DNA of 64,000 bases from an archaeon (GTDB lineage Archaea > Iainarchaeota > Iainarchaeia > Iainarchaeales > 1-14-0-10-31-34): assembly GCA_024277355.1 (NCBI GenBank), contig JAJRVL010000011.1, positions 34,155 to 98,154 of the forward strand, given 5' to 3'. Of this stretch, positions 17,777-62,133 are shown piece by piece. The number at the start of each line of letters is the position of its first letter. Positions within the stretch are counted from its first letter, which is position 1. Both the position numbers and the translations under genes were made by a program. The notes beneath the pieces were generated by a model. The model was given only the letters and a program-made list of their open reading frames with translations, had not been told where the DNA came from and searched no databases.

Positions 17777-17780
17777 AAAA

Positions 17781-29358: not shown

Positions 29359-30771
29359 ATGAAAAAAATAGTTTTTATGGACTTTGAAGAACTAAAAAAA
29401 AGAAACCAGTTAATAGCAGAAGAAATCAAAAAAAGAAATAATTTTGTTATAGTTAACCATCATGATGCAGATGGATTATGTTCCGGAGCAATAATTGCAA
29501 AAGCATTAGAAAGAGAAAACAAAAAATTCAATCAGATTACAGCAAAACAACTTTATTCTGATACAATAAGAGAAATTAAAAATTCAGGAGAAAACTATAT
29601 TTTTGTTGACTTTGGTTCAGGCCAATTAAATTTGCTTGAAGAAATGCTTGAAAAAAACTATTTTGTAATAGACCACCATCAGCCAGTAAAATCTGATTAC
29701 TTATTTCATTCAAATCCTTTTTTGTTTGGGTTTGACGGAGGCAAAGAAGTTTCAGGAGCAGGAATGACTTATTTTTTAGCAAAAGAATTAAATGAAAAAA
29801 ACAAGGATTTAAGTGCATTAGCAATTGTTGGAGCAGTAGGAGACATGCAGGATTATGAAGGCGAATTAACCGGATTAAACCGAAAAATTTTAGCTGATGC
29901 AGAAGAAATGAAATTAATAAAAAAAGAAAAAGATTTGAGGTTATATGGAAAAATTTCAAGGCCTTTAACTCAGTTTCTTTCTTTTTCTTCTAATCCAATT
30001 TTTCCCGGCTTAGCAGCAAATGACAAAGCATGCGTTGACTTTATTTTAAATTCAGGAATTGAATTAAAAGAAAAAAATGCATGGAAAACTTATTCAGATT
30101 TAACTAAAGAAGAAAAAAAAACTTTTACTTCAAATTTAATTGTTTATTCAATTGAAAATGGTTTCAGTGAATGGAAAGCACAAAATATTATTGGAGAAAC
30201 ATACACTTTACTGAAAGAAAACCCAAAAAGCCCTTTAAGAGATGCAAAAGAGTTTGCTACACTTCTTAATTCCTGCGGAAGACACGGAGAAGCACATATA
30301 GGCTTAAAAGTCTGCATGGGAGACAGAATCAACGCATACCAAAATGCAATGGAATTATTATTAGAACATAAAAGACAGTTAAGAGCAGGAATTGAATGGG
30401 TTCATGAACAGGGATTAACAGAAGAAAAAGCATTTTATTTTTTTGATGCAGAAGAAAACATAAAAGAAGAAATTGTAGGAATAATTGCAGGAATGCTTTA
30501 TGGTTCAAATTTAGTTAGCCAAAAAAAACCAATAATTGCTTTTGCAAGACAAAAAGACGGATTAATTAAAGTTAGTGCAAGAGCAACAGATGATTTAATT
30601 AGAAAAGGATTAAATTTAGGAAAAATTTTAAGAGAAACCTGCATGGAATTAGGTTCTGATGCAGAAGGCGGAGGCCATAAAATTGCAGCAGGATGCAGAA
30701 TTAATTTATGGCAGCAGAATTCATTTAAAGAAAAATTAAATAAAAAAATAGCTGACAGCATTAAAATCTGA
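29359..30771 (+). CDS. archaeal RecJ/Cdc45-like DHH-family phosphoesterase (GAN-like nuclease)
   Basis: 470 aa. DHH motifs VNHHDADGLCSGAI and VIDHHQP, plus a DHHA1-like C-terminal region (GGGHKIAAG). Confidence 0.7.
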   Translation: MKKIVFMDFEELKKRNQLIAEEIKKRNNFVIVNHHDADGLCSGAIIAKALERENKKFNQITAKQLYSDTIREIKNSGENYIFVDFGSGQLNLLEEMLEKNYFVIDHHQPVKSDYLFHSNPFLFGFDGGKEVSGAGMTYFLAKELNEKNKDLSALAIVGAVGDMQDYEGELTGLNRKILADAEEMKLIKKEKDLRLYGKISRPLTQFLSFSSNPIFPGLAANDKACVDFILNSGIELKEKNAWKTYSDLTKEEKKTFTSNLIVYSIENGFSEWKAQNIIGETYTLLKENPKSPLRDAKEFATLLNSCGRHGEAHIGLKVCMGDRINAYQNAMELLLEHKRQLRAGIEWVHEQGLTEEKAFYFFDAEENIKEEIVGIIAGMLYGSNLVSQKKPIIAFARQKDGLIKVSARATDDLIRKGLNLGKILRETCMELGSDAEGGGHKIAAGCRINLWQQNSFKEKLNKKIADSIKI

Positions 30772-38869: not shown

Positions 38870-38880
38870 TAATTTTTAAT

Positions 38881-38990
38881 AAAACCTTTTTGAAAAGTTT
38901 GTTTTTGCAAAGCAAACTAATTTTTGATAAACCTTTTTTTTTAAAAAGATTTTTTTGATAAAACTTTTTCTGAAAAAGTTTTTTATTCAG
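38881..38990. promoter_or_regulatory. cluster of T-rich dyad-symmetric elements (cttttt-N-aaaaag x3) between convergent genes; probable bidirectional terminator or binding sites
   Basis: cctttttgaaaagttt, acctttttttttaaaaagatttttt and actttttctgaaaaagtttttt read directly from the sequence. Confidence 0.3.
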
Positions 38991-39177
38991 TTAAATAAAA
39001 CTTGTTTTTTGAGATTCCAATTTTTCCTTCTCTTGCAAGCCAGCCTAAAGCAGCAAAAACATGTTCTGATTTAAGTTTAGTTGCTTTTTTTAACTGAACT
39101 GCATTCATTGGTTTTTTGTTGTTTAATACATTCCATACAGTTCCTGCTTTGCTTCCAAAATATTCATTTGATTCCAT
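38983..39177 (-). CDS. small winged-helix DNA-binding protein
   Basis: 64 aa. KPMNAVQLKKATKLKSEHVFAALGWLAREGKI is a wHTH-like recognition helix and wing. Confidence 0.4.
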   Translation of the reverse strand: MESNEYFGSKAGTVWNVLNNKKPMNAVQLKKATKLKSEHVFAALGWLAREGKIGISKNKFYLTE

Positions 39178-39234
39178 TTTATGCCCTCCTAAGAAAGTTA
39201 ATTCATTAATATTGTAAAAAATAAATTATTAAAT

Positions 39235-40404
39235 CTATTGCAATCTTTGCTTTAAATCAGCTAAAACATTAGCATAATTCAAAAAAGATTCATAAGGAGA
39301 ATCATAAGGATTGAAATATTTATGCACGTCTCCGTCAGCAAACCATTTAGTGCACATATAATAAAAATGATCTGAAATCTGCAGTTTTCTCCAGTCCTGA
39401 ATTAACTTTGGGTTTCTTGAAGCTAAAATTTTTTCTTCTAAAGATTTAATTTCGTTAAATGCCTGCTGCTGCATTTGATTTTCAAGCCATGCAGATAAAT
39501 CTCTGTCAACATCAGCCCAAGAAGAAATATAAGGAACATCAAATTCTCCTACAACAGGAAAATCATTAATTATTTCTGAAGCAGTAGCAAACTCTAATTT
39601 TTTTGTTTTAAACATTTCTTTTGGAAGATGCTTTAAAAAATTAAATATTCCTGTTGACTCCCATTGATGTTCACCAAAAGTTTCATAATCCATAAATAAA
39701 TTAATGCAATGCCCTTTGTTTTGTGAAAGCCATAAAGCATATTTATCAGCAGTTAAAGGCCATTCATTCCAGTCTCTTGAAGAAAAACGAAAAGCAATAT
39801 CATCTGAAAGCTTGTAATTTCTTAACAAAACTTTAATATTTGAATTTTTAGCTTTGTAAACATAATTAGGGGAACGCCAACCTAAAACAGAAGTTAAACC
39901 TTCAGATACAATTCCTTTAAAATTCATTTCTTCTGCTGCTTTAGCTATTTCATTTGAATACATTGCTTCAGTGTTACGGAAAATTTTTGGTTTAACTCTA
40001 AAAACTTTCTTGAATTTCTTTGAATGCATTTTAACTTGTTTTACAAATTCTTTTTGTGAAACTAAATAAGCTAAAGAATGATAATAAGTTTCATCAAATA
40101 ATTCAACGTTCCCGGAATCAACTAATTTCTGAAATGATTCAACTACTTCAGGAAAATGTTCTTCTAATTGATCTAAAAAAACTCCTGTAATGCTGAAACA
40201 AAATTTAAATTTGTCTCCGTGTTTTTCAATTAAATCCAGTAAAATTTTGTTTGTTGGGAGATAACATTTATTTGAAACTCTTTCTAAATAAAATTTATTT
40301 GCCAAATCATCAAAATAATTATTGTTTTTTCCTATGTCAAACAAAGAATAATTCCTTAAACGCAAAGGCTGATGAACATGAAAATAAAGACAAACTGCAG
40401 GCAT
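39235..40404 (-). CDS. glycoside hydrolase family 57 (alpha-glucan-active) enzyme
   Basis: 389 aa. N-terminal LYFHVHQPLRL is typical of GH57. Confidence 0.65.
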   Translation of the reverse strand: MPAVCLYFHVHQPLRLRNYSLFDIGKNNNYFDDLANKFYLERVSNKCYLPTNKILLDLIEKHGDKFKFCFSITGVFLDQLEEHFPEVVESFQKLVDSGNVELFDETYYHSLAYLVSQKEFVKQVKMHSKKFKKVFRVKPKIFRNTEAMYSNEIAKAAEEMNFKGIVSEGLTSVLGWRSPNYVYKAKNSNIKVLLRNYKLSDDIAFRFSSRDWNEWPLTADKYALWLSQNKGHCINLFMDYETFGEHQWESTGIFNFLKHLPKEMFKTKKLEFATASEIINDFPVVGEFDVPYISSWADVDRDLSAWLENQMQQQAFNEIKSLEEKILASRNPKLIQDWRKLQISDHFYYMCTKWFADGDVHKYFNPYDSPYESFLNYANVLADLKQRLQ

Positions 40405-41654
40405 TAAACAACCTCTTTGTAAATTTCAAGGCATTGATCTGCAACAGAACCCCAACTAAAAGACTGAAGTTCAGTAAAAGCATTATGTTTTAGTTCATGC
40501 GAAAGAGAACCATGTTCTAATACCCCAATTATTTTATTTGTTAATTGATTTACATCCCAAAAATCAACTTTAAAGCAATGATTAATCACTTCACTTACTC
40601 CTGATTGTTTTGAAATAATCACAGGATTCTTAGAAGCCATTGCCTCTAATGCAGTCAAACCAAAAGGCTCTGAAACAGAAGGCATAACAAACAAATCTGC
40701 AATAGAATAAAATTGTTTTACATTGTCTTGAAAACCAGAAAAAGAAATTTTATCTGAAATGCCCATTGCAATAGCTTTATTGATTAAAGAAGAAAGCATG
40801 TCTCCGTCTCCAACAATAACAAAACGAGTATTAGGTTTAAATTGAAGAACTTGATATGCTGCTTCAAGAAACCAGTCAGGACCTTTTTGAATAGTTAATC
40901 TTCCTAAAAACAAAACAACTTTTTCATTTAAAGCAAAATTAGAATTATCCACGATATAACTTGATTTATCTATTCCATTGTATACTACTTGAATTTTTTG
41001 TTCAGGAATATTATATCTTTCAATTAACTGGTTTTTCATGTAATTGCTTATTGTAATTACTTTATCTGCTTCAATTAAGCCGTTTCTTTCAACTTTACAG
41101 ATTTTTTCATTAGGAAACTGATTTCCTGTCCTGTCAAATTCAGTTGAATGAATAGTAACAATTAAGGGCTTGTTTTTTGCTTTTTTTAATGCAATTCCTG
41201 CAGGAAAAGTCATCCAATCATGACAATGGATTACATCACAAGGTTTTGAAGTCATTTTTTTCACTGCAGAAACAGTATAACTTTTAACTTTAGAGAAAAA
41301 ATCCATTCCATAAGCATTAATGTTTTTTTCAGCTTCATGCCTTTCAAGATCACTTTTAACTTCCTCAGAATAAATAATGTTATTTGAAGGAGAATAAGGA
41401 TGAAAATCAAAGCCTTCAATTTCAATTAAATCTAAATGAGCATAATCTTCTGCCTGAACAACTTCAATAAAACCCGGATTAATTTTTACGCCAGTAGAAG
41501 GCATAACAAAAGTAACTTTAGTTCCTTTTTTAGATAAAGCTTTAGTAAAACCAAATAAATAAGTGCCTAAACCTCCAGATTTAAATGGAGGAAACTCCCA
41601 ACCAAGCATTAAAACATTCATATAATCAACCACTAACCTGCATGATTTTCTCAT
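40404..41654 (-). CDS. GT-B glycosyltransferase, archaeal/bacterial-type glycogen (starch) synthase-like (GT5/GT4)
   Basis: 416 aa. The likely start is the internal MNVLMLGWEFPPFKSGGLGT (K-x-GGL motif). C-terminal SEPFGLTALEAMASKNPVI. Confidence 0.6.
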   Translation of the reverse strand: MRKSCRLVVDYMNVLMLGWEFPPFKSGGLGTYLFGFTKALSKKGTKVTFVMPSTGVKINPGFIEVVQAEDYAHLDLIEIEGFDFHPYSPSNNIIYSEEVKSDLERHEAEKNINAYGMDFFSKVKSYTVSAVKKMTSKPCDVIHCHDWMTFPAGIALKKAKNKPLIVTIHSTEFDRTGNQFPNEKICKVERNGLIEADKVITISNYMKNQLIERYNIPEQKIQVVYNGIDKSSYIVDNSNFALNEKVVLFLGRLTIQKGPDWFLEAAYQVLQFKPNTRFVIVGDGDMLSSLINKAIAMGISDKISFSGFQDNVKQFYSIADLFVMPSVSEPFGLTALEAMASKNPVIISKQSGVSEVINHCFKVDFWDVNQLTNKIIGVLEHGSLSHELKHNAFTELQSFSWGSVADQCLEIYKEVV

Positions 41655-43968: not shown

Positions 43969-46602
43969 TTACTTTTTTTCTTTTATTTTTGCCTGAGCTG
44001 CAGCTAATCTTGCAATTGGAACCCTAAAAGGCGAACAAGAAACATAACTTAAACCTAAAGAATGACAGAATTCAATTGAAGCAGGATCTCCTCCGTGTTC
44101 CCCGCAGATTCCTAACTTAATATTTTCTTTTGCTTTTTTTGCATGACCTACTGCAATTTCCATTAATTTTCCTACTCCTGAAATATCAACTGAAACAAAA
44201 GGAGAAACAGAAAAAATTTTTTCTTCAAAATATTTATTGAAAAATTTTCCTTCAACATCGTCTCTAGAAAAACCAAAAGTAGTCTGAGTTAAATCATTTG
44301 TTCCAAAAGAAAAAAAATCCGCATGCTCTGCAATTTCATCTGCAGTTAAAGCAGCTCTAGGTAATTCAATCATTGTCCCAATAGGAATATTATTTTCAGG
44401 AATTAAATCAGATAAAACTTTTTCTACTTTTTTTCTTGACAATTCAAGTTCTTTTGCTATTCCAACTAAAGGAATCATTATTTCAGGTTTAGGTGAAAGC
44501 CCTTTATTTTTCAAATTTAATGCAGCTTCAGCTATTGCTCTGGTTTGCATTTCAATTATTTCAGGATAAACTATTCCAATCCTGCATCCTCTAAAACCAA
44601 GCATTGGGTTAACTTCATGTAATTCTTTTATTTTAATTAATAAAGCTTTTTTTACTGCAATTTCTTCTAAAACGTCAGAGTTATTTAAATCTCTTTTTCT
44701 TTTTAATCGGTTTATTTCTCTTAATAATTTTTCTTTTGAAGGCAAAAATTCATGTAAAGGAGGATCAATTAAACGAATTGTAACAGGAAAGCCATCCATT
44801 GCCTCAAAAATTTCTTCAAAATCTTTTCTCTGCATTTTTTCTAATTCATCTAAATGTTTTTTTCTTTCATCAAAAGAAGAACTTAAAATCATTTTCTGAA
44901 CAATAGGAAGTCTTTTAGCGTCAAAAAACATGTGTTCAGTTCTGCATAAGCCGATTCCTTTAGCTCCTAATTCAACTGCTTTTTTTGCGTCTTTTGGAGT
45001 ATCAGCATTAGTTCTTACTCCTAAAGTTTTAATTTCATCACTCCATTCAAGAATAGTAGAAAAAAACTTATATGGTTCAGGTTCAATTAATTTAATTTCC
45101 CCTAAAAAAACTTTTCCTGTTGTACCGTCAATTGAAATAAAATCTCCTTGATTTAATTCAGTTCCCTCAACTTTAAGGGTTTTAGTTGAATAATCAATTT
45201 TTATTTCTTCGCATCCAACAACACAAGGTTTGCCCATTCCTCTTGCAACAACAGCAGCATGAGAAGTGTTTCCTCCTCTGCAAGTTAAAATTCCTTTTGA
45301 TGCAATCATTCCATGAATATCTTCAGGAGAAGTTTCATGTCTGACTAAAATTACGTTTCCTTTTTCGCTTTCTTTTTCAGCTGTATTTGCATCAAAAAAC
45401 ATTCTCCCTGATGCAGCCCCGGGAGAAGCATTTAACCCTAAAGCAATTTCATTTAATTTTTGTTTTGGGTCAATTCTTTTATGGAGCAGTTGATTTAAAT
45501 CTAAAGGATTAATTCTCAGTAAAGCTTCTTGTTTTGAAATTAGTTTTTCTTCAACTAATTCAACTGCAATTCTAACTGCTGCCTGACCGGTTCTTTTTCC
45601 GTTTCTGGTCTGCAGTAAAAATAATTTTTTGTCTTCAATAGTAAATTCAGTGTCCTGCATGTCTTTGTAGTGTTTTTCTAATTTTTCGCATACAGACTTA
45701 AATTCTTCAAAAACTTCAGGCATTACTTCATTTAATTCAGCAATTATTCTTGGAGTACGGATTCCTGCAACAACATCCTCGCCTTGAGCATTTAACAAAA
45801 ATTCTCCATATAATTTTTTTATTCCATTAGAAGGGTTTCTGGTAAAACACACTCCTGTCCCTGAAGTTTCGCCTAAATTTCCAAAAACCATTTCCTGAAT
45901 TACTACTCCAGTTCCCCATGAATCAGGAATTTTATTTAATTTACGATAAGTTATTGCTCGTTTATTATTCCATGAATTAAATACAGCCTTAACCGCTAAA
46001 ATTAATTGTTGTTTTGGTTCTTCAGGAAAAGTGTTTTTTGTTTCTTGTTCAACTAAATTTTTGTATTCTTTAATTATTTTTTTTAGTGATTCAGCAGTTA
46101 AATCACAGTCTTTTGTTGTTTCTGTATTTTGTTTTTCTTTTTCTAAGATTTCTTCAAATTTATCGTGTTCTAAATTTAATACAACATTAGAAAACATCTG
46201 AATAAATCTTCTGTAAGAATCTAATACAAATCTTTCATTTTTTGTTTTTTCAATCATTGATTTAATTGTTTTTTCATTTAATCCAAGATTTAATACTGTA
46301 TCCATCATTCCAGGCATTGAGGTTCTTGCACCACTTCTAACTGAAACTAATAAGGGGTTTTCTCCTGAAAACTGTTTTTTTGTTTGTTTTTCTAATTGCA
46401 TTAAAGAGTCATTTAATTCTTGTTCTAATCCTTCAGGGAAATCATTTGAATCAAAAAAATTAATACAAGCTTGAGTTGAAATCACAAAACCTTTAGGGAC
46501 AGGCAAACCTAATTTAGTCATTTCACATAAATTGCTTCCTTTTCCTCCTAAAAGGTTTTTCATTTCTTTGCTTCCTTCCTCAAAAAAATAAATATACTTC
46601 AA
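43969..46602 (-). CDS. ppdK: pyruvate, phosphate dikinase
   Basis: 877 aa. N-terminal LLGGKGSNLCEM, phospho-His domain GGNTSHAAVVARGMGKPCVVG, C-terminal PEP-utilising TIM barrel with CGE. Confidence 0.9.
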   Translation of the reverse strand: MKYIYFFEEGSKEMKNLLGGKGSNLCEMTKLGLPVPKGFVISTQACINFFDSNDFPEGLEQELNDSLMQLEKQTKKQFSGENPLLVSVRSGARTSMPGMMDTVLNLGLNEKTIKSMIEKTKNERFVLDSYRRFIQMFSNVVLNLEHDKFEEILEKEKQNTETTKDCDLTAESLKKIIKEYKNLVEQETKNTFPEEPKQQLILAVKAVFNSWNNKRAITYRKLNKIPDSWGTGVVIQEMVFGNLGETSGTGVCFTRNPSNGIKKLYGEFLLNAQGEDVVAGIRTPRIIAELNEVMPEVFEEFKSVCEKLEKHYKDMQDTEFTIEDKKLFLLQTRNGKRTGQAAVRIAVELVEEKLISKQEALLRINPLDLNQLLHKRIDPKQKLNEIALGLNASPGAASGRMFFDANTAEKESEKGNVILVRHETSPEDIHGMIASKGILTCRGGNTSHAAVVARGMGKPCVVGCEEIKIDYSTKTLKVEGTELNQGDFISIDGTTGKVFLGEIKLIEPEPYKFFSTILEWSDEIKTLGVRTNADTPKDAKKAVELGAKGIGLCRTEHMFFDAKRLPIVQKMILSSSFDERKKHLDELEKMQRKDFEEIFEAMDGFPVTIRLIDPPLHEFLPSKEKLLREINRLKRKRDLNNSDVLEEIAVKKALLIKIKELHEVNPMLGFRGCRIGIVYPEIIEMQTRAIAEAALNLKNKGLSPKPEIMIPLVGIAKELELSRKKVEKVLSDLIPENNIPIGTMIELPRAALTADEIAEHADFFSFGTNDLTQTTFGFSRDDVEGKFFNKYFEEKIFSVSPFVSVDISGVGKLMEIAVGHAKKAKENIKLGICGEHGGDPASIEFCHSLGLSYVSCSPFRVPIARLAAAQAKIKEKK

Positions 46603-46743: not shown

Positions 46744-47760
46744 ATGAAAAAAATAAGTATTTTAGGTTCAACCGGAAGCATCGGAACACAGACTTTAGAT
46801 GTAGTAAGACAGCATTCTGATGAATTCAAAGTTTTAGGGTTAGCTGCGTTTAATGAAATAGACAAAATAATTGAACAAATTAATGAATTTAAGCCGGAAA
46901 AAGTCTGTTTGTTTGATGAAAAATCAGCTGAAGAGTTAGCAAAAAAAACTGATGTTGAAGTTGTTTCAGGGATGCAGGGATTAAAAGAAATTGCAGTAAT
47001 AGAAGAAATTGAGCAGACAATTGTTTCAGTTGTAGGTGCAATAGGAATTGAGCCGACAATGCATGCAATAAAAAAAGGAAAAAATATTGCTTTAGCAAAT
47101 AAAGAAACTTTAGTTTCAGCAGGACAGCCAATAATGAAAGAAGTCAAAAAACAAGGAATTGTATTAATGCCAATTGATTCAGAGCATTCAGCTATATTTC
47201 AATGTTTGAATGGAGAGGAAAGAAAAAAAGTTTCAAAAGTTTTAATTACTTGTTCTGGCGGGCCGTTTAGAGGGAAAAAAATTTCTGATTTTTATAATGC
47301 AACTCCTGAACAGGCTTTAGGACATCCAACATGGAGTATGGGTTCAAAAATTACAATTGATTCTTCAACTTTAATGAATAAAGGCCTGGAAGTATTGGAA
47401 GCAAAATGGCTGTATGATTTAGAATTAGAAGAAATTGAAGTAGTAATTCATCCTCAAAGTTTAATTCATTCAATGGTTGAATTTACTGACGGGAGTATTA
47501 TGGCTCAAATTGGAACACACGATATGCGTACTCCCATCCAATATGCTTTAACTTATCCAAAAAGATTAACAAATGAATTTCCAAGATTAAATTTATTTGA
47601 AAACAATAATTTAACTTTTGAAAAACCTGATTACAAAAATTTTCCGTGTTTAGGTTTTGCTTTTGAAGCAGGAAAACAAAAAGGAACTTTAGCTTCAGCA
47701 ATGAATGCAGCAAATGAAATTGCTGTCTGGAGTTTTTTAGATAAAAAAATCAAGTACTGA
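46744..47760 (+). CDS. dxr: 1-deoxy-D-xylulose 5-phosphate reductoisomerase, interrupted by an in-frame TGA (C-terminal 41 codons continue to 47889)
   Basis: ILGSTGSIGTQTLDV NADPH motif. NAANEIAVWSFLDKKIKY*EIPEIIKQVMDLHK aligns across the stop with E. coli Dxr [32 protein letters not shown]. Confidence 0.75.
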   Translation: MKKISILGSTGSIGTQTLDVVRQHSDEFKVLGLAAFNEIDKIIEQINEFKPEKVCLFDEKSAEELAKKTDVEVVSGMQGLKEIAVIEEIEQTIVSVVGAIGIEPTMHAIKKGKNIALANKETLVSAGQPIMKEVKKQGIVLMPIDSEHSAIFQCLNGEERKKVSKVLITCSGGPFRGKKISDFYNATPEQALGHPTWSMGSKITIDSSTLMNKGLEVLEAKWLYDLELEEIEVVIHPQSLIHSMVEFTDGSIMAQIGTHDMRTPIQYALTYPKRLTNEFPRLNLFENNNLTFEKPDYKNFPCLGFAFEAGKQKGTLASAMNAANEIAVWSFLDKKIKY

Positions 47761-47998
47761 GAAATCCCGGAAATAATTAAACAAGTAATGGATTTACATA
47801 AAAATACTTTAAATCCTTCTTTAGAGGATTCACTTGAAGCAGATAAAAAAGCAAGAGAAACAGCAAAAAAAATAATAGAAGAAAAATGAGAAAAAATGAA
47901 AAAACAGCAGAGTATTCAGTTATTCAGTAATTGATAATTTAATAAACAAAACAAAAAGAAATTTAAGCATTAAAAGAGTTTAATTACAAAGTGATGAA

Positions 47999-48688
47999 AT
48001 GAATTATGCAGTAATTTGTGCCGGCGGAAAAGGAATAAGAATGGACGCCGGAAAAAACAAAGTGTTCTTAAAAATTAAAGGCAAAGAAATAATTGCAAAA
48101 ACTATTTTAGTGTTTGAAAAAGCAAAAGAAATAAACGGAATAATTATTTCAATTGGAAAGAATGACATAAAAGAAATACAGGAAATAATTGAAAAAGAAA
48201 AATTTGAAAAAATTAAAGCAGTAATTGAAGGTGGAAAAGAAAGACAGGATTCCGTTTATAATGGAATAAAAAAATTACAGGAATTTGCAGAAAAAGATGA
48301 CGTGATTTTAATTCATAATGCAGCAAACCCTTTTGTAAAAGAAGAAACAATAAACAACTGCATTAAAGCAGCAAAAGAATTTGGAGCAAGTGTTGCAGCA
48401 CAAAAAGTAAAAGACACAATAAAAAAAGTTGATGAAGATTTATTAGTTAAAAAAACATTAAACCGAAAAGAATTATGGCAAATGCAGACTCCGCAGGCAA
48501 TAATTAACCACATTGCATTAAAAGCATTTGAAAAAGCTTATTCAGAAAACTTTTATGGAACAGATGACGTTCAGTTAGTTGAAAGAATTCATGGAAAAAT
48601 AAAAATAGTTGAATGTTCATATAAAAACATTAAAATTACAACAAAAGAAGATATAGAATTAGCAGAAAGAATTTTAGATGAAAACTGA
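47999..48688 (+). CDS. ispD: 2-C-methyl-D-erythritol 4-phosphate cytidylyltransferase
   Basis: 229 aa. N-terminal AVICAGGKGIRMDAGKNKVFLKIKGKEII matches the IspD P-loop (AAGxGxRM...K.FL). Confidence 0.75.
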   Translation: MNYAVICAGGKGIRMDAGKNKVFLKIKGKEIIAKTILVFEKAKEINGIIISIGKNDIKEIQEIIEKEKFEKIKAVIEGGKERQDSVYNGIKKLQEFAEKDDVILIHNAANPFVKEETINNCIKAAKEFGASVAAQKVKDTIKKVDEDLLVKKTLNRKELWQMQTPQAIINHIALKAFEKAYSENFYGTDDVQLVERIHGKIKIVECSYKNIKITTKEDIELAERILDEN

Positions 48689-48703
48689 TTAAAATGAAAA
48701 AAA

Positions 48704-49555
48704 TTGTCAGGAAATTGTTTAAAAGAAAAAAAAACCCCTAAAAAAATAAATATTCCCAGAAGAAAGTTTCTCAAAACCATAACTATCGGAACTACATCAA
48801 TATCTTTAGCTTATCTTTTGAGCTGTTTTCCAATTAAGCTATCTAAACTGCCTATAGAAAAAACCCATCAAACTACATTACTTGGAATGATTCATTTTAC
48901 AGACATGAAATCAAGCAAACAAGAAATTATTAATAAAACAAAAACCAATAAAAATACTTTAAAAAGCTACAATAAAGCACTTGAAGCCATTAAAAGACTG
49001 CCTGCTGGTTCAAGAATATTAATTGAAGATGCTACTCCTTTTTCAGTTAACGGAAAAAAGTATTACAGTATTTTTTCTGTTTTATCTGAAAAAGCAAGAG
49101 CAAAAGGATTAATAGTTGAAAATTATCTTCCAAGAAAAGCAATATTCAGGAGAATTGACGCATACAGTTATTTGATTGAAACATTTTATAAAAATAAAAA
49201 TCCAGAAATAATTAAAGCAAGAAAAAAAGAACTAGCTAAAAAATACAATCTTAGTTCAATAAAAAACATTAATTCTGTTGAAGAAGCAAGCACAAAATTA
49301 TATCAATATTTTGAACATATGACAAATTTTTTAATTAAATCTTACAGAAAAAAACCAGCATTAATTATTGCAGGAGATTTACATGTTGCTGCATCAAAAA
49401 AATGGCTGAAAAATGCTGAAGATATAACTCCTAAAAACACCAGAAAATACACTGAAAAAATCATGGCAAATTCAAAACAAGAATTTAAAGAACTAGTTGA
49501 ATTATTTGAAAAACACAGAGAAAAAATGGTTAAAAAATTAAAAGTTAACGGATGA
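48704..49555 (+). CDS. hypothetical Tat-signal lipoprotein
   Basis: N-terminus contains PRRKFLKTITIGTTSISLAYLLSC, a twin-arginine motif (RRxFLK) plus lipobox. Start is uncertain (TTG in track; upstream ATG at 48694 is out of frame by one across an A9 run). Confidence 0.4.
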   Translation: MSGNCLKEKKTPKKINIPRRKFLKTITIGTTSISLAYLLSCFPIKLSKLPIEKTHQTTLLGMIHFTDMKSSKQEIINKTKTNKNTLKSYNKALEAIKRLPAGSRILIEDATPFSVNGKKYYSIFSVLSEKARAKGLIVENYLPRKAIFRRIDAYSYLIETFYKNKNPEIIKARKKELAKKYNLSSIKNINSVEEASTKLYQYFEHMTNFLIKSYRKKPALIIAGDLHVAASKKWLKNAEDITPKNTRKYTEKIMANSKQEFKELVELFEKHREKMVKKLKVNG

Positions 49556-49597
49556 ATTAATAGTTAGATAAAAAAAAAAGCAACAATATAAAAAGGA

Positions 49598-49611
49598 TTT
49601 TATACATAATT
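49598..49611 (+). promoter_or_regulatory. promoter-like motif ttttatacataatt ending ~13 bp before the ispF ATG (leaderless-type spacing)
   Basis: TATA-like element begins 25 nt upstream of ATG 49624. Confidence 0.45.
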
Positions 49612-49623
49612 TTAGTGAGAGTT

Positions 49624-50145
49624 ATGCCATTTAGAGTAGGATTAGGACAAGATTCCCATAGGTTTTCTCACGTGCATGAAAAAAGACCTTTGATTTTAGG
49701 CGGAATAGAAATTAAAGATTGTTTGGGTTTAAAGGGAAATTCAGATGCAGATGTAATACTTCATGCATTATTTAATTCTCTTGCACAATTAATTGGCTGG
49801 AAAAGTTTAGGAAGCCATGCAGACAAAATGGTTAAAGAACAAGGAATAACTGATTCAAAAGAATACTTAAAAGAACCATTAAAAAAACTAAAAGAAATGA
49901 ATTATGAAATTACAACTGTAAGCATCACACTTGAATGCAAAAAACCAAAAATTGATCCGGTATCAAATGAAATAAGAACAAGTGTTGCAAAAATTCTTGG
50001 AATAAAAAAAGAACAAGTAGGAATAATTGCAACAACAGGAGAAAGATTAACTGCTTTTGGAAGAGGGGAAGGAATACAAGCATTTACAGTGATAACAGCA
50101 ATACATAAAGACATCAAAAAATTTACAGGAAAAAAAAATAAATAA
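49624..50145 (+). CDS. ispF: 2-C-methyl-D-erythritol 2,4-cyclodiphosphate synthase
   Basis: MPFRVGLGQDSHRF...LILGGIEI...GNSDADVILHAL matches the IspF metal-binding motifs (D.H..H ... SDADV.LHA). Track start is GTG at 49615. ATG at 49624 is preferred. Confidence 0.85.
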   Translation: MPFRVGLGQDSHRFSHVHEKRPLILGGIEIKDCLGLKGNSDADVILHALFNSLAQLIGWKSLGSHADKMVKEQGITDSKEYLKEPLKKLKEMNYEITTVSITLECKKPKIDPVSNEIRTSVAKILGIKKEQVGIIATTGERLTAFGRGEGIQAFTVITAIHKDIKKFTGKKNK

Positions 50146-50238
50146 ATAAATTCGTTCTTTGACGTAATATGCTTGTTAAATCAACGTAAGGTTTAAATAG
50201 TTTGAGCTATAATATTGGTATTTCGGGAAAAGATTTTT

Positions 50239-52038
50239 ATGGATAAAAATGAATTAAATTTTGGAAAATTACTGGAAAAAATTGATTCTCCAGCAGACTT
50301 AAAAAAACTAAAAGTTGAAGAATTAGAAGAATTGTCTAAAGAAGTAAGAGAAGTTTTAATTAAAACCTGTTCAGCTAACGGAGGACATATTGGGGCAAAT
50401 TTAGGAGTAGTTGAATTAAGCATTGCATTGCATTATGTTTTTAATTCTCCTCAAGACAAATTTTTGTTTGATACAAGCCATCAAAGTTATACTCACAAAT
50501 TATTGACTGGAAGGAAAAAAGATTTCCATACAATCTGCACTCCAAAAGGAATTCCAAGATTTACAGTAAGAAATGAAACTCCATTTGATAACTGGAGTGC
50601 AGGCCATGCTTCAACTGCATTAAGCGGAGCAATGGGAATGGCTGAAGCAAGAAAAACAAACAAACAAGAATATGAAGTAGTAGCAGTAACAGGCGACGGA
50701 GCATTAACCGGCGGAATGTGTTATGAAGCACTAAATAATATCGGGTATAACCAGACAGATGTAATTTTAATTTTAAATGACAACAAAATGAGCATTTCTC
50801 CTAATGTAGGTGCAATGTATAAACATTTGAAAAAGCTGTCAATGTTTGCAGACGAAAAAATTCCACGAAGAGAAGTAGGAACAATATTTGAAAAATTAGG
50901 AATTCAATATTACGGGCCGGTTGACGGCCATAACGTAAAAAAATTAGTTGAAGAATTAGAAAATTTAAAAGACTTAAAAGGACCAAAATTGCTTCATGTA
51001 TTAACCATTAAAGGAAAAGGAATGGAATACATGGAAAACGATAAAGCAACATGGCATGAGCACCCTGCATTTGATGTTGAAACCGGCCAGCCAATAAAAA
51101 AAGGACCTGCAAAAATAGAAAAAATTGCAGTTCAGGCTTTAATGGAATTAGCAGAACAAGATAAATCAATTGTGGGAATTACAGCAGCAATGCCTGCAGG
51201 AACCGCTTTAATTGAATTCAGCAAAAAATTCCCTGACAGATTTTATGATGTAGGAATAGCAGAAGAACACGCAGTTACTTTTGCAGCAGGATTAGCTGCA
51301 GAAAAAACAAAACCTTTTGTAGTAATTTACAGTCCTTTTTTGCAGAGAGCTTTTGATCAGGTAGCACATGATGTTGCATTACAGGATTTGCCGGTAAAAT
51401 TATTGGTTCCAAAAGCAGCAATAACCGGAGACGGCCCAACACAAGGAGGAATCCTTGACTTCAGTTATCTGAGAATTATTCCAAACTTAATTGTAATGGC
51501 GCCAAAAGATGAAAACGAATTAAGACATATGATTAAAACCGCACAAGAATACAATAAAGGACCAATTAGTGTCAGATACCCAAAAGGAAATGCTTTAGGA
51601 GTAGAATTAGATAAAGAAATGAAATCAATTGAAATAGGAAAAGCTGAAATGATTAAAGAAGGAAAAGACATTTCTTTGATTAGTATTGGATTTATGTTAA
51701 AAGAAACAGTTGAAGCTGCTGAGATTTTAAAGAAAGAAGGGATTGATGCTGAAGTAATTAATTCAAGGTTTGTTAAACCATTAGATAGAAAAATGATTTC
51801 TGAAAGCCTGAAAAAAACAGGAAAAGGAATCACAATAGAAGAAAATATTCTTCCCGGAGGGTTTGGTTCAGCTGTCTTGGAAATGCTTGAAGCTAAAGGA
51901 CTAAATGAAGTTGTATTGCAGAGAATAGGCGCACCAGACGAATATATTGGTTATGACAGTCCAAATGAAATCAAAAAACAGTTTGGAATGGATGCAGAAA
52001 GCATAGTAAAAAAAGTTAAAAAAATGCTTGGAAAATAA
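50239..52038 (+). CDS. dxs: 1-deoxy-D-xylulose-5-phosphate synthase
   Basis: GGHIGANLGVVELSIALHYVFNSPQDKFLFDTSHQSYTHKLLTGRK aligns closely with bacterial DXS. TPP-binding GDGALTGG. Track start is TTG at 50215. ATG at 50239 is preferred. Confidence 0.9.
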   Translation: MDKNELNFGKLLEKIDSPADLKKLKVEELEELSKEVREVLIKTCSANGGHIGANLGVVELSIALHYVFNSPQDKFLFDTSHQSYTHKLLTGRKKDFHTICTPKGIPRFTVRNETPFDNWSAGHASTALSGAMGMAEARKTNKQEYEVVAVTGDGALTGGMCYEALNNIGYNQTDVILILNDNKMSISPNVGAMYKHLKKLSMFADEKIPRREVGTIFEKLGIQYYGPVDGHNVKKLVEELENLKDLKGPKLLHVLTIKGKGMEYMENDKATWHEHPAFDVETGQPIKKGPAKIEKIAVQALMELAEQDKSIVGITAAMPAGTALIEFSKKFPDRFYDVGIAEEHAVTFAAGLAAEKTKPFVVIYSPFLQRAFDQVAHDVALQDLPVKLLVPKAAITGDGPTQGGILDFSYLRIIPNLIVMAPKDENELRHMIKTAQEYNKGPISVRYPKGNALGVELDKEMKSIEIGKAEMIKEGKDISLISIGFMLKETVEAAEILKKEGIDAEVINSRFVKPLDRKMISESLKKTGKGITIEENILPGGFGSAVLEMLEAKGLNEVVLQRIGAPDEYIGYDSPNEIKKQFGMDAESIVKKVKKMLGK

Positions 52039-52490: not shown

Positions 52491-53330
52491 TTACAAAAAA
52501 TCCCTTGATTTTTTCCATTCAATTTCAGCTTTCTCACAAAAAGAAATAATTTTTTGTTTTTGTTCTGAAACTAAACCTTTCCAGTCAAACAAAACAAAAT
52601 CAACTTTTTCAGAAGTCTGTTTAATCATTTGTTCAAATAAAACAAAATCAACTTCATTAACATAATATTTAGATAAAATATGAGAAACCGCAATATCTGT
52701 TCTGGCCATTACTTTAGAAAAAGAAGGACAATAATGGGTTCCGCCTACTCCAATTGCTGTCTTGAAATTTGAATTAAAATTAAAAAAAGAATCCATAATA
52801 GAAAAAGCAATTATTTTTCCTGCCTGCTTATTTTTCCATTCGGTTTCATTGCTTCCAATTTCAATAAAAACTGCAGGTTTAGACAAAAAAGGGCCGTGAT
52901 GAGTTTGCTCCATTAAAACAGGCCAGTCAAAATTTTCTTTTTTTGTTTGTTCAAGTAAATTCAAAAAAAAGTTTTTCATTACTAAAGAAGAAACTGAAAC
53001 TAAAGTTTTTTCTTTTCCGCCTAAATCAGCTTTACTAAAATTTCCTATTGGGTGAACAGAAAAAGTTTTTTGTCCTGATTCACTTGAATGCTTTGAAGCA
53101 AAAATAAACAAATCAGTTTCTAATTCATCTAAAAAATCTGCGGTAACTTGTTTTTCATTAATTAAAATTAAATCAAAAATTTGTTTTTCATTAGAAAAAG
53201 AATAAATTGAATTTGAATTAAATTGTTTTTCTGTTTTCTTAAAATCAAAGCATTCAATTAAATTAGAATAAATGTTTAATCCTGCTAAATCTGTTTTAGA
53301 AACAATAATTGAAATTTTATTAAAGTTCAT
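52491..53330 (-). CDS. dtdA: D-aminoacyl-tRNA deacylase, archaeal type
   Basis: 279 aa. Overall collinear similarity to DtdA (…SKTDLAGLNI...LIECFDF...IFASKHSS...TFSVHPIGN...EQTHHGP...). Confidence 0.65.
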   Translation of the reverse strand: MNFNKISIIVSKTDLAGLNIYSNLIECFDFKKTEKQFNSNSIYSFSNEKQIFDLILINEKQVTADFLDELETDLFIFASKHSSESGQKTFSVHPIGNFSKADLGGKEKTLVSVSSLVMKNFFLNLLEQTKKENFDWPVLMEQTHHGPFLSKPAVFIEIGSNETEWKNKQAGKIIAFSIMDSFFNFNSNFKTAIGVGGTHYCPSFSKVMARTDIAVSHILSKYYVNEVDFVLFEQMIKQTSEKVDFVLFDWKGLVSEQKQKIISFCEKAEIEWKKSRDFL

Positions 53331-57150: not shown

Positions 57151-57984
57151 TTGATGACTAGAAGAAGACACTTTAAAAGAAGCCCTGCAGGCGCTTTTGG
57201 AAAAAAACCTACTCATGGAACAGAGCTTTCTGTTGACAGGAAAATAGGCGGAGCTATAGGAAAACTAATTAAACAAAGAAAACAAGAACAAAGAAAACAA
57301 GATAAAAGAATGGCACAATTAAAAAAAATTTCAAAAACAAAACTTACTCTTGCAGAAGAACTTGAGTTAATTAAACTAAATTTAATTAAATACCAAAAAT
57401 TATTAGGAGATACTTCAAAAGGAGTAGTTACATTAAACCTTGCAGGAATAGGAAAAAAAAGGAATCTTTCTGAAAAACAACTAAAACAAATTTCAAAACT
57501 GCTTTATGAAGGAAATATTGAAGAAATAAGAAATTACAAGATAGAAACTTTAACAGAAAAAAAAAGCACTCAACTAAAAACAATAATAAAAAAATATCCT
57601 GCAAAATTAATCCCTAAACCTAAATCTTTTACTCATTTGCCTTCAGGAAACATGCTTGCAAGAATTTCAGTTGAATTAAAAATAATTAAACCAAGAAAAC
57701 AAGTACAGCAAGTAAATAAATATGGCTCCAGAATAGGAAAACCAAAGCAAATAACAGAAGAAATTGAAACTACTAGCACAGAATTATTAGTTGAATATAA
57801 TTTGAATAGTCTGCCTTCAAGAAAAAAGAAAGGAAACTTAAGAATTCAGACAATTGATGGAAAAGGAAAAGTTGGATTAATTCCTGACAGTGTTGTTTCA
57901 ATAGTAAGTCAAATAAGACAAATGCACGAAGGAAAAACAGGAACTACTCTTTTTCTTCAGGGAACTTTAACTAAAGCAAACTGA
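57151..57984 (+). CDS. hypothetical highly basic protein
   Basis: 277 aa. MMTRRRHFKRSPAGAFGKKPTHG... No recognisable domain. Confidence 0.3.
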   Translation: MMTRRRHFKRSPAGAFGKKPTHGTELSVDRKIGGAIGKLIKQRKQEQRKQDKRMAQLKKISKTKLTLAEELELIKLNLIKYQKLLGDTSKGVVTLNLAGIGKKRNLSEKQLKQISKLLYEGNIEEIRNYKIETLTEKKSTQLKTIIKKYPAKLIPKPKSFTHLPSGNMLARISVELKIIKPRKQVQQVNKYGSRIGKPKQITEEIETTSTELLVEYNLNSLPSRKKKGNLRIQTIDGKGKVGLIPDSVVSIVSQIRQMHEGKTGTTLFLQGTLTKAN

Positions 57985-58792: not shown

Positions 58793-59818
58793 AAGGAATT
58801 AAAAATAAATTCTGCTTGGTCAAGAAATAGCTTTAAGAAACAAACTGTTATGTAGACAGAATATACATAATTATTAGTCTTTTTTGGCCAAAAAAGAGCC
58901 CTCAACATACTAAAACCCTTTATTTCAGCCAGATAAGCCAATATAGCCAAACCCATCAAAAATGGCTTTAAATATGCCTTAAAAAAACTCTGCTAAAAAA
59001 ATCTTATTTTAGAGTATTTCGTTAATTTAAGCCAAATTAAACTGAATTTAATAGATTTACTGGCTTTTCTTATAGATCGGCAAAGCAATTCAACCCCTCA
59101 CAGATTTCCAAAAACCTCTTTGGAAATTTCCTTGATTTTTCTGGGTTTTTTCTTTATTTTTTCAACTATTTCTAATTAAGGAATTTTTTGTTTATTTTTG
59201 TTTTTTCTTAGAAGTTTTCCAGAAAATTTTTGAAAAGTTTTATTTTTTTAAGCCACTTCGCAAACTCCCTTTCTGGATTTTTTGAGCCACATCTGACTCC
59301 GCCTATTTTGTATACATAACTCTTGATCTTGCTGGCTTCTCCAAACAACCAACTTACCCGCCCCCACACTTCCACTAAAGTTCAGTTTTTCACACTTTTC
59401 AACAAAGTCCCCTCTATGAAAACACGGATAATGTAGATTATACGTGGATTCATGAGTAAATAAAGGCTCAAACAAACGCTTTAATCAACCAAACTAAACC
59501 GCTCGCCTTAAAGATAAGCGATTTTAACGGGTTTTAAGCCAGTTTTTGGTTTTGCTGCCTAAAAATTAGAAGTTAACTTTGAATAGTTAATTTTGTTTTT
59601 GATCTGTTAGAGGAACACAGACAATAACTTATCAAAACCAGAGTTATGTATAAGACTAAATTTGTTTTAGGTTTCTATATGTTTTACACACAATTTTGCT
59701 TTAATTGCTATAATATTATGTTTTTGTGTTTTATTTAAATCAGCAAATCAATTCCACAAAATTATCTGTAAATTGAATTTTTATCTAAAAATTGAAATAA
59801 AAGAACTATGAAAATAAA

Positions 59819-59837
59819 TGCGCTTGCGCGCGCGCCG
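59819..59837. other. GC-only alternating-purine/pyrimidine element gcgcttgcgcgcgcgccg in an AT-rich intergenic context
   Basis: Read directly from the sequence. Located just 3' of the XRE gene. Confidence 0.3.
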
Positions 59838-59864
59838 AAAATTTAGGGTTAGTTTAAGCAACCA

Positions 59865-60062
59865 TTATAACTCAAAAATAGCTTCTATATCCTCATTAAA
59901 CACTTTAGCTATATTATAAGCTAATTTTAAAGAAGGATTATATTTCCCTTGCTCTAAAAAGACAATTGTTTCTCTTCGAACTTTAACGATTTTAGCTAAT
60001 TGTTCCTGTGTTAAATTGTATTTTGCTCTGAATTCTTTGATTTTTGTCTTCATTTGATTCAC
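59865..60062 (-). CDS. XRE-family (Cro/C1-type) HTH transcriptional regulator
   Basis: 65 aa. [39 protein letters not shown] is the classic HTH_3 pattern. Confidence 0.7.
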
Positions 60063-61134: not shown

Positions 61135-62133
61135 ATGTTTGCATCTGAAATAAATAAATTATTAAATTTAGTTTCCAGAAGCTTTACGCTTTGTATTCCG
61201 CGTCTTCCAAAACAAGTCAGAAACGAAGTAGGAAACTTTTATCTTTTATGCAGGTATGCAGACTCAATCGAAGACTCAAAAATTTCATTTACTGACAAAA
61301 AAAAGTACTTTAAAAGGTATTTAACCTGCCTTAAACAAGAAGACTTAAACAAAATGAACACGTTATCGGCTGAATTAACTCCTAAAATTCTAAACAAAAA
61401 TGATCAAAAAATGTTTAAGCGGTTTTCTAAAGTATTTAAGCAGTTTGTGGGTTTTGACGAAAAATCAAAAAAAATTGCTTTAAAATGGCTAAAAGAAATG
61501 ACTAAAGGAATGGCTAAATACTCTAAAAAAGAAATTGAAAATTTTTTGGATTTAGATAATTATTGTTATTATGTTGCAGGCACAGTTGGTTTTTATATTA
61601 CGCAAATCACCGACCATAAATTTAATTTACATAAATATGATTTTTTGTTATCTAAATGCGAAGATTTTGGTTTATTACTTCAGAAAGTAAATATTATACG
61701 GGATTTTTCAAAAGACTATGAAAATGGAAAAACCTTCTGGCCTAAATCACTTTTTAAAAAACACAACATGGAAATAAAAGATGCATTTAAAAATAAAAAT
61801 GACTTAAAAAGAAAACAAATTTTGTCTGAAATGATTAAAAGCACTGAACCGCATATTAAAAATACGCTTGAATACTTAAAAAATTTGCCTGCTGAATTAA
61901 AATTTGTCTGGGCAATTCCTTTTTATATGGCAATTCCAACACTGTTAAAGTGTTATGGTAACGACGAAATTTTTGATCCGCAAAAAAAAGTAAAAATTGG
62001 AAAAATCCAGACAACTCAAATAATTTCATCTTTAAACAAAAAAATTTCTTCAGAACAATTTTTTGAAGAATATCTTATTGCTTTAAATGAAAAAAACTCA
62101 CAAGGACTAAATTTAAATCTTCAACTAAAATAA
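61135..62133 (+). CDS. squalene/phytoene synthase-family (head-to-head trans-isoprenyl diphosphate) enzyme
   Basis: 332 aa. YLLCRYADSIED (first Asp-rich region) and YCYYVAGTVG...NIIRDFSKD (second region) match the SQS_PSY family. Confidence 0.65.
   Translation: MFASEINKLLNLVSRSFTLCIPRLPKQVRNEVGNFYLLCRYADSIEDSKISFTDKKKYFKRYLTCLKQEDLNKMNTLSAELTPKILNKNDQKMFKRFSKVFKQFVGFDEKSKKIALKWLKEMTKGMAKYSKKEIENFLDLDNYCYYVAGTVGFYITQITDHKFNLHKYDFLLSKCEDFGLLLQKVNIIRDFSKDYENGKTFWPKSLFKKHNMEIKDAFKNKNDLKRKQILSEMIKSTEPHIKNTLEYLKNLPAELKFVWAIPFYMAIPTLLKCYGNDEIFDPQKKVKIGKIQTTQIISSLNKKISSEQFFEEYLIALNEKNSQGLNLNLQLK

Follow-up and report, generated by a model that had tools for sequence, protein, structure and literature searches.

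A bacterial-type MEP gene cluster with an interrupted dxr gene in the genome of a DPANN-like archaeon

A cluster of bacterial-type MEP pathway genes on a contig with archaeal hallmarks raises the question of whether these genes belong to the archaeal chromosome, where they came from, and what an in-frame stop codon in dxr means for the pathway. The locus was analyzed within a window of 64 kb, the whole stretch of DNA considered here, and compared with the corresponding loci of related genomes.

The four MEP genes and an inserted reading frame

The cluster starts with dxr (46744..47889, forward strand) encoding the DXP reductoisomerase Dxr. With the stop codon scored as X, Dxr reached 492.7 bits against the NCBIfam equivalog model TIGR00243 (cut-off 315.7); the match continued across the stop and spanned profile positions 1-383 of 389, and all three Dxr Pfam domains (PF02670, PF08436, PF13288) were found. 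The MEP cytidylyltransferase gene ispD (47999..48688, forward strand) is independent of ispF rather than fused to it, and its product scored 206.5 bits against TIGR00453 (cut-off 181.3) and matched PF01128 at 8e-59. The MEcPP synthase gene ispF (49624..50145, forward strand) gave 152.4 bits against TIGR00151 (cut-off 116.45), and the DXP synthase gene dxs (50239..52038, forward strand) 721.9 bits against TIGR00204 (cut-off 465.95), with the TPP and transketolase domains PF13292, PF02779, and PF02780. The mechanically called ORF of ispF begins with GTG at 49615, whereas the relatives point to ATG at 49624; for dxs, the mechanical start is TTG at 50215, and alignment to relatives favours ATG at 50239. 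Identity to related proteins was 77-84% for Dxr (full-length archaeal proteins P0001-P0012), 75-78% for IspD, and 78-81% for Dxs (relatives of 592-599 aa). The sequence-only reading had recognized four clustered MEP enzymes from their motifs; coordinates, strand, and quoted motifs were verified, and the Pfam matches agree with the equivalog assignments.

Like the bacterial enzymes (E. coli Dxs, Dxr/IspC, IspD, and IspF, and their Firmicutes homologues), all four proteins pass the equivalog thresholds and retain the expected cofactor and metal motifs, namely GSTGSIG and DSEH in Dxr and D/H/H in IspF. The Asp, His, and His zinc ligands of IspF align with D8, H10, and H42 of the E. coli protein. 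Unlike their bacterial counterparts, the genes reside in an archaeal host and a stop codon breaks the reading frame of dxr; furthermore, IspF lacks the bacterial GDIGK.FPDTD segment, a change conserved in both archaeal clades described below.

As had been stated from the sequence, ispE, ispG, and ispH were not found in the 64-kb window, and the relatives' loci L001, L002, L083, and L085 likewise lacked them up to 10 kb from the cluster. A search for IspH with a Woesearchaeota query returned only the Woesearchaeota clade. In the proposed pathway, Dxs would form DXP from pyruvate and glyceraldehyde-3-phosphate, Dxr would convert DXP to MEP, and IspD would make CDP-ME; after phosphorylation of CDP-ME by IspE, whose gene is not in the window, IspF would make MEcPP, and IspG and IspH would complete the synthesis of IPP/DMAPP for archaeal isoprenoid lipids. 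We infer both the activity of the pathway and the location of ispE, ispG, and ispH elsewhere in the genome. A gene of the squalene/phytoene synthase family (61135..62133, forward strand; PF00494 at 1.2e-43) could act downstream by using isoprenoid precursors and might thereby be tied to the cluster.

Between ispD and ispF lies an ORF of 283 aa (48704..49555, forward strand) which does not encode a MEP enzyme; it is an inserted gene of a rare family unrelated to the MEP pathway, and it gave no Pfam or NCBIfam match. Its N-terminal region (...IPRRKFLKTITIGTTSISLAYLLSC...) contains RRKFLK, which fits the twin-arginine consensus, and LLSC, an atypical lipobox; "Tat lipoprotein" is thus a fair reading of a predicted signal. 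The homologue P0122 carries RRTF...LEGC in this region, and five other homologues (P0123-P0127) are devoid of a signal region. An AlphaFold2 model gave ChaN, HopBA1, and a TraB-family protein as best structural matches, the fold match being weak; ChaN is itself a lipoprotein. In the alignment of the family, the positions G..H, E, R, and G..H are conserved, as in the ChaN/TraB/Tiki/erythromycin-esterase-like superfamily.

Host identity and integrity of the contig

The archaeal hallmarks reported for this contig were largely confirmed. A RecJ-family nuclease gene (29359..30771, forward strand), used as host-identity marker, reached 530 bits against NF053576 (RecJ_archaeal, cut-off 360). Relatives of this RecJ that bear a name are labelled Ca. 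Diapherotrites, Ca. Micrarchaeota, or "archaeon", and one near relative with 75% identity was deposited as a Ca. Micrarchaeota archaeon; in this the host differs from Woesearchaeota, a label absent from the best 120 RecJ matches. The RecJ relatives P0251 and P0254 are located on contigs of 364,048 and 103,231 bp, equal in size to the contigs that carry the MEP loci L002 and L085. Additional archaeal markers are DtdA (PF04414), KaiC-like ATPases (PF06745), and class III signal peptide and T2SSE/T2SSF pilus genes, the pilins with class III signal being accompanied by FlaI/TadC-like genes. The phosphoglycerate kinase had to be withdrawn from the archaeal markers: its sole Pfam match is the generic PF00162, and among NCBIfam models it came closest to one of bacterial type, below the cut-off.

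A bacterial/archaeal mis-assembly or binning error, which had been considered as an alternative, could account for the several bacterial-type genes on the contig, i.e. the MEP genes, a LeuRS (TIGR00396), and a type I GAPDH. The latter two are in keeping with the mosaic gene repertoire that has been reported for DPANN, and the gene order around the cluster speaks against a chimera. The cluster is flanked on the left by a pyruvate, phosphate dikinase gene (PPDK; 43969..46602, reverse strand; TIGR01828, 1343.8 bits) and on the right by the gene for an archaeal DtdA-type D-aminoacyl-tRNA deacylase (52491..53330, reverse strand; PF04414 at 5.6e-62). The order PPDK-dxr-ispD-ispF-dxs-DtdA, with archaeal genes on either side, is common to five independent assemblies from different projects (GCA_043819075.1, GCA_964608675.1 with its 364-kb contig, GCA_043824355.1, Logan SRR26275509, and JGI 3300038380). 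PPDK keeps its position in L001, L002, L083, L084, and L085, and DtdA directly 3' of dxs in L001, L002, L083, and L085. Furthermore, the MEP segment of 5.3 kb does not stand out in composition (tetranucleotide distance 0.0143, mean of the window 0.0146, r = 0.989), and no GC or tetranucleotide break was seen across it within the window. The MEP genes also diverge in step with their surroundings, showing 75-82% identity to relatives as compared to 65-77% for flanking genes. Hence, the chimeric contig was refuted by the shared gene order and the uniform composition, and a mis-assembly is now barely conceivable.

Selection, origin, and relation to other MEP systems

The four MEP genes are under purifying selection in this lineage, as are the flanking genes: pN/pS was 0.16-0.33 for dxr, ispD, ispF, and dxs, and 0.23-0.44 for PPDK and DtdA. 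In a rough neighbor-joining tree of Dxr with 200 bootstraps, the clade of the window protein and the Woesearchaeota/Nanoarchaeota clade were each recovered at 100%, and both fell into one presumed all-archaeal clade at 94.5% (189/200), the archaeal origin of several members being assumed; a grouping with Clostridia obtained 5%. Dxr thus groups with DPANN and not with one bacterial group. The Dxr proteins of near relatives are already deposited as archaeal. Among named non-archaeal sequences, Firmicutes gave the best matches to Dxr (55-59% identity), which agrees with the affinity of dxr to Firmicutes published in PMC8421398.

Tree, synteny, and archaeal markers together support the proposed horizontal acquisition of bacterial-type MEP genes by a DPANN-like archaeal genome. 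Its novelty had been overstated: MEP genes in DPANN archaea have been known since 2018, and the sole oddity here is the premature stop in dxr. Such genes were described in PMC6107057 (2018), PMC8204110 and PMC8421398 (2021), and PMC12892359 (2025), with Woesearchaeota and Micrarchaeota as hosts; PMC8204110 and PMC8421398 both cite Castelle & Banfield 2018. PMC12892359 reports a complete MEP pathway in the Micrarchaeota orders Norongarragalinales, Zaosheniarchaeales, and Micrarchaeales. Like the organism studied here, these lineages are DPANN archaea that do not belong to Woesearchaeales and acquired their MEP genes horizontally, whereas some near relatives of the window are deposited as Ca. 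Diapherotrites or plain "archaeon".

The clusters of Woesearchaeota (Woesearchaeales, placed in Nanoarchaeota by GTDB) likewise contain bacterial-type Dxs, Dxr, IspD, and IspF among archaeal chromosomal genes. In the Woesearchaeota MAG GCA_016185755.1, all seven MEP genes are grouped next to one another, flanked by genes for archaeal ribosomal proteins, in the order dxs-ispG...dxr-ispDF...ispE-ispH, with ispD and ispF fused. In contrast, the window holds four genes only (dxr-ispD-ispF-dxs), with ispD and ispF separated by a variable ORF and ispE, ispG, and ispH elsewhere or absent. Protein identity between the two is 46-57%; IspD and the matching half of the fused IspDF are 46% identical. Assignment to the Woesearchaeota subgroup J type, with its fused ispDF and seven-gene cluster (PMC8421398), was rejected on account of the separate ispD and ispF and the four clustered genes. 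IspF of the window and the fused IspDF of the Woesearchaeota MAG have a common derived motif, HALFN..IG.KSLG.[HY]AD.[ML]...G[IV]T[DN]SKEYL. It replaces the GDIGK.FPDTD segment of bacterial IspF, as seen in the E. coli sequence.

Very probably, the four bacterial-type MEP genes form a genuine block that has long resided in the chromosome of a DPANN archaeon of low GC content, where purifying selection maintains them, and the dxr stop is a recent mutation, a variant, or an error. The genes entered DPANN archaea by horizontal transfer, presumably from a bacterial donor; today they form part of an archaeal Dxr/IspF clade shared with Woesearchaeota/Nanoarchaeota MAGs and are fully adapted to the host composition. 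A rather unlikely variant is that they came from another DPANN archaeon and not directly from bacteria, that the cluster was then broken up by splitting of ispDF and separation of ispE, ispG, and ispH, and that the pathway is now being lost through the G-to-T nonsense mutation in dxr. Such a transfer between DPANN lineages is suggested by RecJ, which points to Diapherotrites/Micrarchaeota labels, yet Dxr and the derived IspF type fall together with Woesearchaeota in one archaeal clade.

The in-frame stop in dxr

The stop noted in dxr is present: codon 339 (47758..47760, forward strand) reads TGA, and dxr here lacks an uninterrupted full-length frame. Gly occupies this position in each of the 12 close relatives, encoded by GGA in the five with DNA, and their Dxr proteins are full length (381-389 aa, one of 424 aa). 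The stop arises from a single G-to-T change found in this assembly alone. Beyond it the frame continues for 42 conserved codons up to a second TGA at 47887-47889; the TGA would thus remove the last 42 residues of Dxr (codons 340-381). If it is real, Dxr ends before its C-terminal helical domain is complete, and the organism may have no active pathway. A pilus gene about 23 kb upstream contains another in-frame stop, where a G-to-T change at 23465 converts GAA to TAA as compared to all relatives; this could signal real gene decay. Frameshifts were not seen where gene lengths are comparable with relatives (about 37-58 kb).

Full-length Dxr could be made if TGA were decoded, either as Gly as in genetic code 25, as selenocysteine, or by programmed readthrough. 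The Gly of relatives sits exactly at the TGA and the downstream frame is conserved, as decoding would demand. However, TGA terminates 21 of the 72 long ORFs, among them ispD and pfkB at lengths matching those of relatives, and it occurs in overlapping ATGA gene junctions; its use at the relatives' gene ends led us to reject code 25. The second interrupted gene carries TAA and not TGA, relatives have Gly and not Cys, which makes selenocysteine unlikely, and GGA to TGA is just one of the single-base changes that yield a stop. Decoding is therefore highly improbable. The single G-to-T changes, the normal use of TGA as terminator, and the lack of frameshifts in the comparable stretch suggest that the stops are very recent nonsense mutations or base-call errors; the change in dxr would be a very recent mutation, a variant within the population, or an error of base calling or consensus, and not recoding.

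Real and recent nonsense mutations, marking a population that begins to lose de novo isoprenoid precursor synthesis, have a little under an even chance. Such loss would be expected in a DPANN cell that depends on a host and experiences weak selection together with AT-biased (G-to-T) mutation pressure. Two independent stops within 64 kb, each G-to-T relative to all relatives, point in this direction; the absence of frameshifts in the comparable stretch (about 37-58 kb) argues against a generally poor assembly, and the GC content of 28% in the window versus 31-35% in relatives is consistent with strong GC-to-AT pressure. On the other hand, each gene has just one lesion, and the 42 codons 3' of the dxr stop are equally constrained (pN/pS 0.30-0.53 versus 0.34 in intact relatives), devoid of excess non-synonymous change. 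Furthermore, ispD, ispF, and dxs of the same genome are intact and constrained like those of relatives. Alternatively, and with a probability that likewise falls somewhat short of one half, both stops are sequencing or consensus artefacts, caused for example by G-to-T oxidative damage at low coverage or by a minority variant in the consensus; dxr would then be intact and the pathway functional. G-to-T changes are a signature of 8-oxoguanine damage, and both stops belong to this class. Consensus substitution errors are, however, rare in assemblies free of indel errors, and two stop-creating errors would imply several further silent or missense errors within 64 kb. Apart from the single changed codons, dxr and the pilus gene are conserved and in frame, as expected for an artefact.

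MEP gene cluster and its archaeal surroundings

Five ORFs are encoded on the plus strand between positions 46,744 and 52,038, and four of them were identified as enzymes of the bacterial-type isoprenoid-precursor (MEP) pathway with scores above the NCBI curated equivalog cut-offs: Dxr (TIGR00243, 492.7 bits; cut-off 315.7), IspD (TIGR00453, 206.5 bits; cut-off 181.3), IspF (TIGR00151, 152.4 bits; cut-off 116.45), and Dxs (TIGR00204, 721.9 bits; cut-off 465.95). Pfam matches agreed with these identities, and the motifs quoted in the sequence-only reading were present in the translations; hence, the cluster proposed there is real. Alignment to relatives suggests that translation of ispF begins at ATG 49,624 and not at the first GTG, and that of dxs at ATG 50,239 and not at the first TTG. 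The genes ispE, ispG, and ispH had been placed outside the window; indeed, none of them was found in the 64 kb, nor in the 10-kb flanks of the cluster in the loci of the relatives. When IspH was searched for with a query from a Woesearchaeota locus, the best 120 matches all belonged to that clade, with at least 73% identity, and none came from the lineage of the window. A gene of the squalene/phytoene synthase family (61135-62133, plus strand; PF00494, 1.2e-43) is located 9 kb downstream of the MEP genes; its product is a possible consumer of isoprenoid precursors.

Uncorrected pN/pS values were 0.16-0.27 for dxr upstream of its internal stop codon, 0.17-0.33 for ispD, 0.17-0.32 for ispF, and 0.17-0.27 for dxs; the flanking genes gave 0.23-0.33 (pyruvate, phosphate dikinase, PPDK) and 0.29-0.44 (DtdA). 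Values for pairs including the window resembled those for pairs among intact relatives. Judged by these ratios, the MEP genes are under purifying selection across the lineage.

The GC content of the window is about 28% throughout. That the contig is archaeal was borne out by a DtdA-type D-aminoacyl-tRNA deacylase (PF04414) encoded directly after dxs, an archaeal RecJ-family nuclease upstream of the cluster (NF053576, 530 bits; cut-off 360), a KaiC-type ATPase, and a pilus locus comprising class-III-signal-peptide proteins, a FlaI-like ATPase, and two T2SSF membrane genes. An archaeal PGK, also named in the sequence-only reading, received no confirmation from profile searches. The named RecJ relatives are labelled Ca. 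Diapherotrites, Ca. Micrarchaeota or "archaeon"; a Woesearchaeota label was absent among the best 120 RecJ matches. The nearest Dxr proteins, with 77-84% identity, bear the names "archaeon" and "Ca. Diapherotrites archaeon CG10..." in the database.

The possibility that the contig is chimeric, raised in the same reading, was refuted by synteny and nucleotide composition. The order PPDK (minus strand), dxr, ispD, ispF, dxs, DtdA (minus strand) is common to five independent assemblies. Three of them are NCBI MAGs, in which the contigs measure 146, 364, and 83 kb; the other two are a Logan assembly and a 103-kb contig of a JGI metagenome. RecJ relatives are located on contigs of 364,048 and 103,231 bp, lengths identical to those of two contigs carrying the MEP cluster. 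Tetranucleotide composition is unbroken: the distance of the MEP segment was 0.0143 as compared to a window mean of 0.0146, and a deviation as large or larger was seen in 36% of the segments of equal size. Furthermore, protein identity to the relatives was 75-82% for the MEP enzymes, in step with that of the flanking PPDK (75-77%) and DtdA (65-71%).

Two bacterial-type genes were also observed on this archaeal contig. LeuRS (4268-6967, plus strand) matched the bacterial model TIGR00396 (970 bits) and not the archaeal TIGR00395, and GAPDH (10595-11581, minus strand) is of type I (TIGR01534) and not of the archaeal type II. The 64-kb window contains no tRNA gene, and none of its matches to Rfam families reached the gathering threshold.

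Origin of the MEP genes

A neighbour-joining tree of Dxr with 200 bootstraps, a rough method, was rooted with bacterial sequences from a genome-contig scan with Dxr, in which the matches listed were from bacteria only. Dxr of the window and 12 close relatives formed one clade with 100% bootstrap support; a second clade, also supported by 100%, consisted of sequences deposited as Woesearchaeota or Nanoarchaeota. In 189 of the 200 bootstraps both clades and two intermediate sequences fell into a single, presumably archaeal group, several members of which carry no taxon name. Placement of Clostridia as sister of this group was not supported (bootstrap value of 5%).

For comparison, a MEP locus of a Woesearchaeota MAG (GCA_016185755.1) was analyzed. 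It contains all seven MEP genes together in the order dxs, ispG, dxr, fused ispDF, ispE, ispH and is flanked by archaeal ribosomal protein genes. IspF of the window and the IspF half of the Woesearchaeota protein have a derived segment in common, HALFN..IG.KSLG.[HY]AD.[ML]...G[IV]T[DN]SKEYL, with the zinc ligands retained; it replaces the GDIGK.FPDTD that is usual in bacteria such as E. coli. The MEP genes of the window are therefore assigned to the same archaeal MEP stock as those of the Woesearchaeota locus. Unlike the latter, the window contains four genes only, ispD and ispF are unfused, and variable ORFs are located between them. The earlier interpretation of the cluster as horizontally acquired MEP genes in a DPANN-like archaeon was right in substance.

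The presence of MEP enzymes in a small number of DPANN archaea has been noted and explained by horizontal transfer (Hoshino & Gaucher 2018; PMC6107057). Among 52 Woesearchaeota genomes that form one clade, the pathway was found to be widespread, with co-located genes (Castelle et al. 2021, citing Castelle & Banfield 2018; PMC8204110); the supplementary tables of PMC8204110 contained no KEGG numbers for MEP genes. A fused ispDF and a relationship of dxr and ispG to Firmicutes were reported by Huang et al. (2021; PMC8421398). In a study from 2024, MEP was reported for MAGs of Woesearchaeota and Nanoarchaeota, and the mevalonate pathway for Iainarchaeota (PMC10936187); in a study from 2025, the MEP pathway was described as complete in three orders of Micrarchaeota (PMC12892359). 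In view of these reports the phenomenon is already known, and the window is one more DPANN instance with a gene arrangement unlike the Woesearchaeota type; it adds such an instance in a lineage whose relatives carry Diapherotrites or Micrarchaeota labels. Archaeal MEP genes are relevant to the "lipid divide" and to the extent to which DPANN cells rely on their hosts for lipids, as has been argued in the literature since 2018.

Stop codons in dxr and in a pilus gene

The in-frame stop noticed earlier in dxr was verified as a TGA at 47,758-47,760. Beyond it the frame stays open for 42 codons and ends at another TGA (47,887-47,889), and Dxr profiles match through the first TGA as far as profile position 383 of 389. 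At the codon of the first TGA, Gly is present in all 12 close relatives, encoded by GGA in each of the five with DNA. Selenocysteine was rejected because of this Gly. Recoding of UGA was likewise excluded, since TGA is an ordinary terminator here: of 72 long ORFs, 21 stop at a TGA, among them ispD and pfkB, whose lengths equal those in relatives.

Scanning the window for further interrupted frames revealed one more besides dxr. The second T2SSF/TadC-like pilus membrane gene (23072-24055, plus strand) is split by a TAA at 23465-23467, through which the Pfam T2SSF domain reads; seven metagenomic relatives carry GAA (six) or CAA (one) at this position. Based on the codons of the relatives, the first base of the codon has changed from G to T in both stops, a single change in the case of dxr. 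Frameshifts were not seen in the part of the window (about 37-58 kb) in which gene lengths could be checked against those of relatives.

Both stops may be real mutations of very recent date, or variants within the population, in a genome subject to strong pressure from GC to AT; alternatively, they may be G-to-T base errors in the consensus. For the 42 codons after the dxr stop, uncorrected pN/pS was 0.30-0.53 as compared to 0.34 between two intact relatives, values that do not point to drift following inactivation. We rate mutation and consensus error as about equally likely, for dxr as for the T2SSF gene. If the dxr stop is real, it would provide a small natural example of a MEP pathway switched off in one population.

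Inserted ORFs and further features of the window

The fifth ORF of the cluster (283 aa; 48,704-49,555, plus strand) had no Pfam or NCBIfam match and is not part of the MEP pathway. It had been described as a Tat lipoprotein. Its N-terminus contains PRRKFLK, then a hydrophobic stretch, and then LLSC, which would fit a putative twin-arginine signal with an atypical lipobox; the signal region recurs in the best homologue only (35% identical; RRTF...LEGC), other family members being without it. In relatives the corresponding slot is either empty or occupied by an unrelated lysine-rich ORF (147-150 aa), and further unrelated ORFs of 145 aa are located between dxr and ispD in two relatives. In the relatives' own coordinates, inserted ORFs lie at 11153-11590 and 12339-12791 (L001), 11179-11616 (L002), 11957-12409 (L083), and 11991-12434 (L085). 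Within each slot they are homologous (39-43% and 27% identity). A single family for all inserted ORFs was rejected, as no significant similarity was detected across the 283-aa, ispD-ispF-slot, and dxr-ispD-slot classes. The gaps within the MEP cluster are occupied by different small, mostly lysine-rich ORFs from genome to genome; thus, they act as variable sites of insertion and appear to be hotspots of insertion or turnover.

Very basic, lysine-rich ORFs elsewhere in the window are similar in style to the small insertions in the clusters of the relatives: two adjacent ones at 62206-62682 and 62735-63211 (plus strand) both begin with MPA.KK, and others are found at 57151-57984 and 32070-32642.

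An ORF-poor stretch of about 1 kb (58793-59864) adjoins a small XRE-type HTH ORF (59865-60062, minus strand). Its core, about 59192-59595, is conserved at the nucleotide level in two relatives (L083, 20566-20969, 69-83%; L002, 20254-20414, 79%), where no or only tiny genes were called. Neither RNase P RNA nor SRP RNA was supported as its identity: Rfam gave no matches to the core at E values up to 10 in the window or L083, and folding energies were no better than those of shuffled sequences (z of -0.13 and -1.08).

The most deviant tetranucleotide composition in the window was observed at 11000-19300 (distance 0.034 as compared to a mean of 0.015), a region that includes class-III-signal pilin-like genes and the gene for a surface protein of 915 aa (14073-16820). 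Upstream of PPDK, a glycogen or sugar metabolism block (34621-41654) is conserved with relatives and encodes a PGM/PMM-type mutase, a GalT-like protein, a glycogen synthase-like protein, a GH57 protein, and a GT4/GT5 glycosyltransferase.
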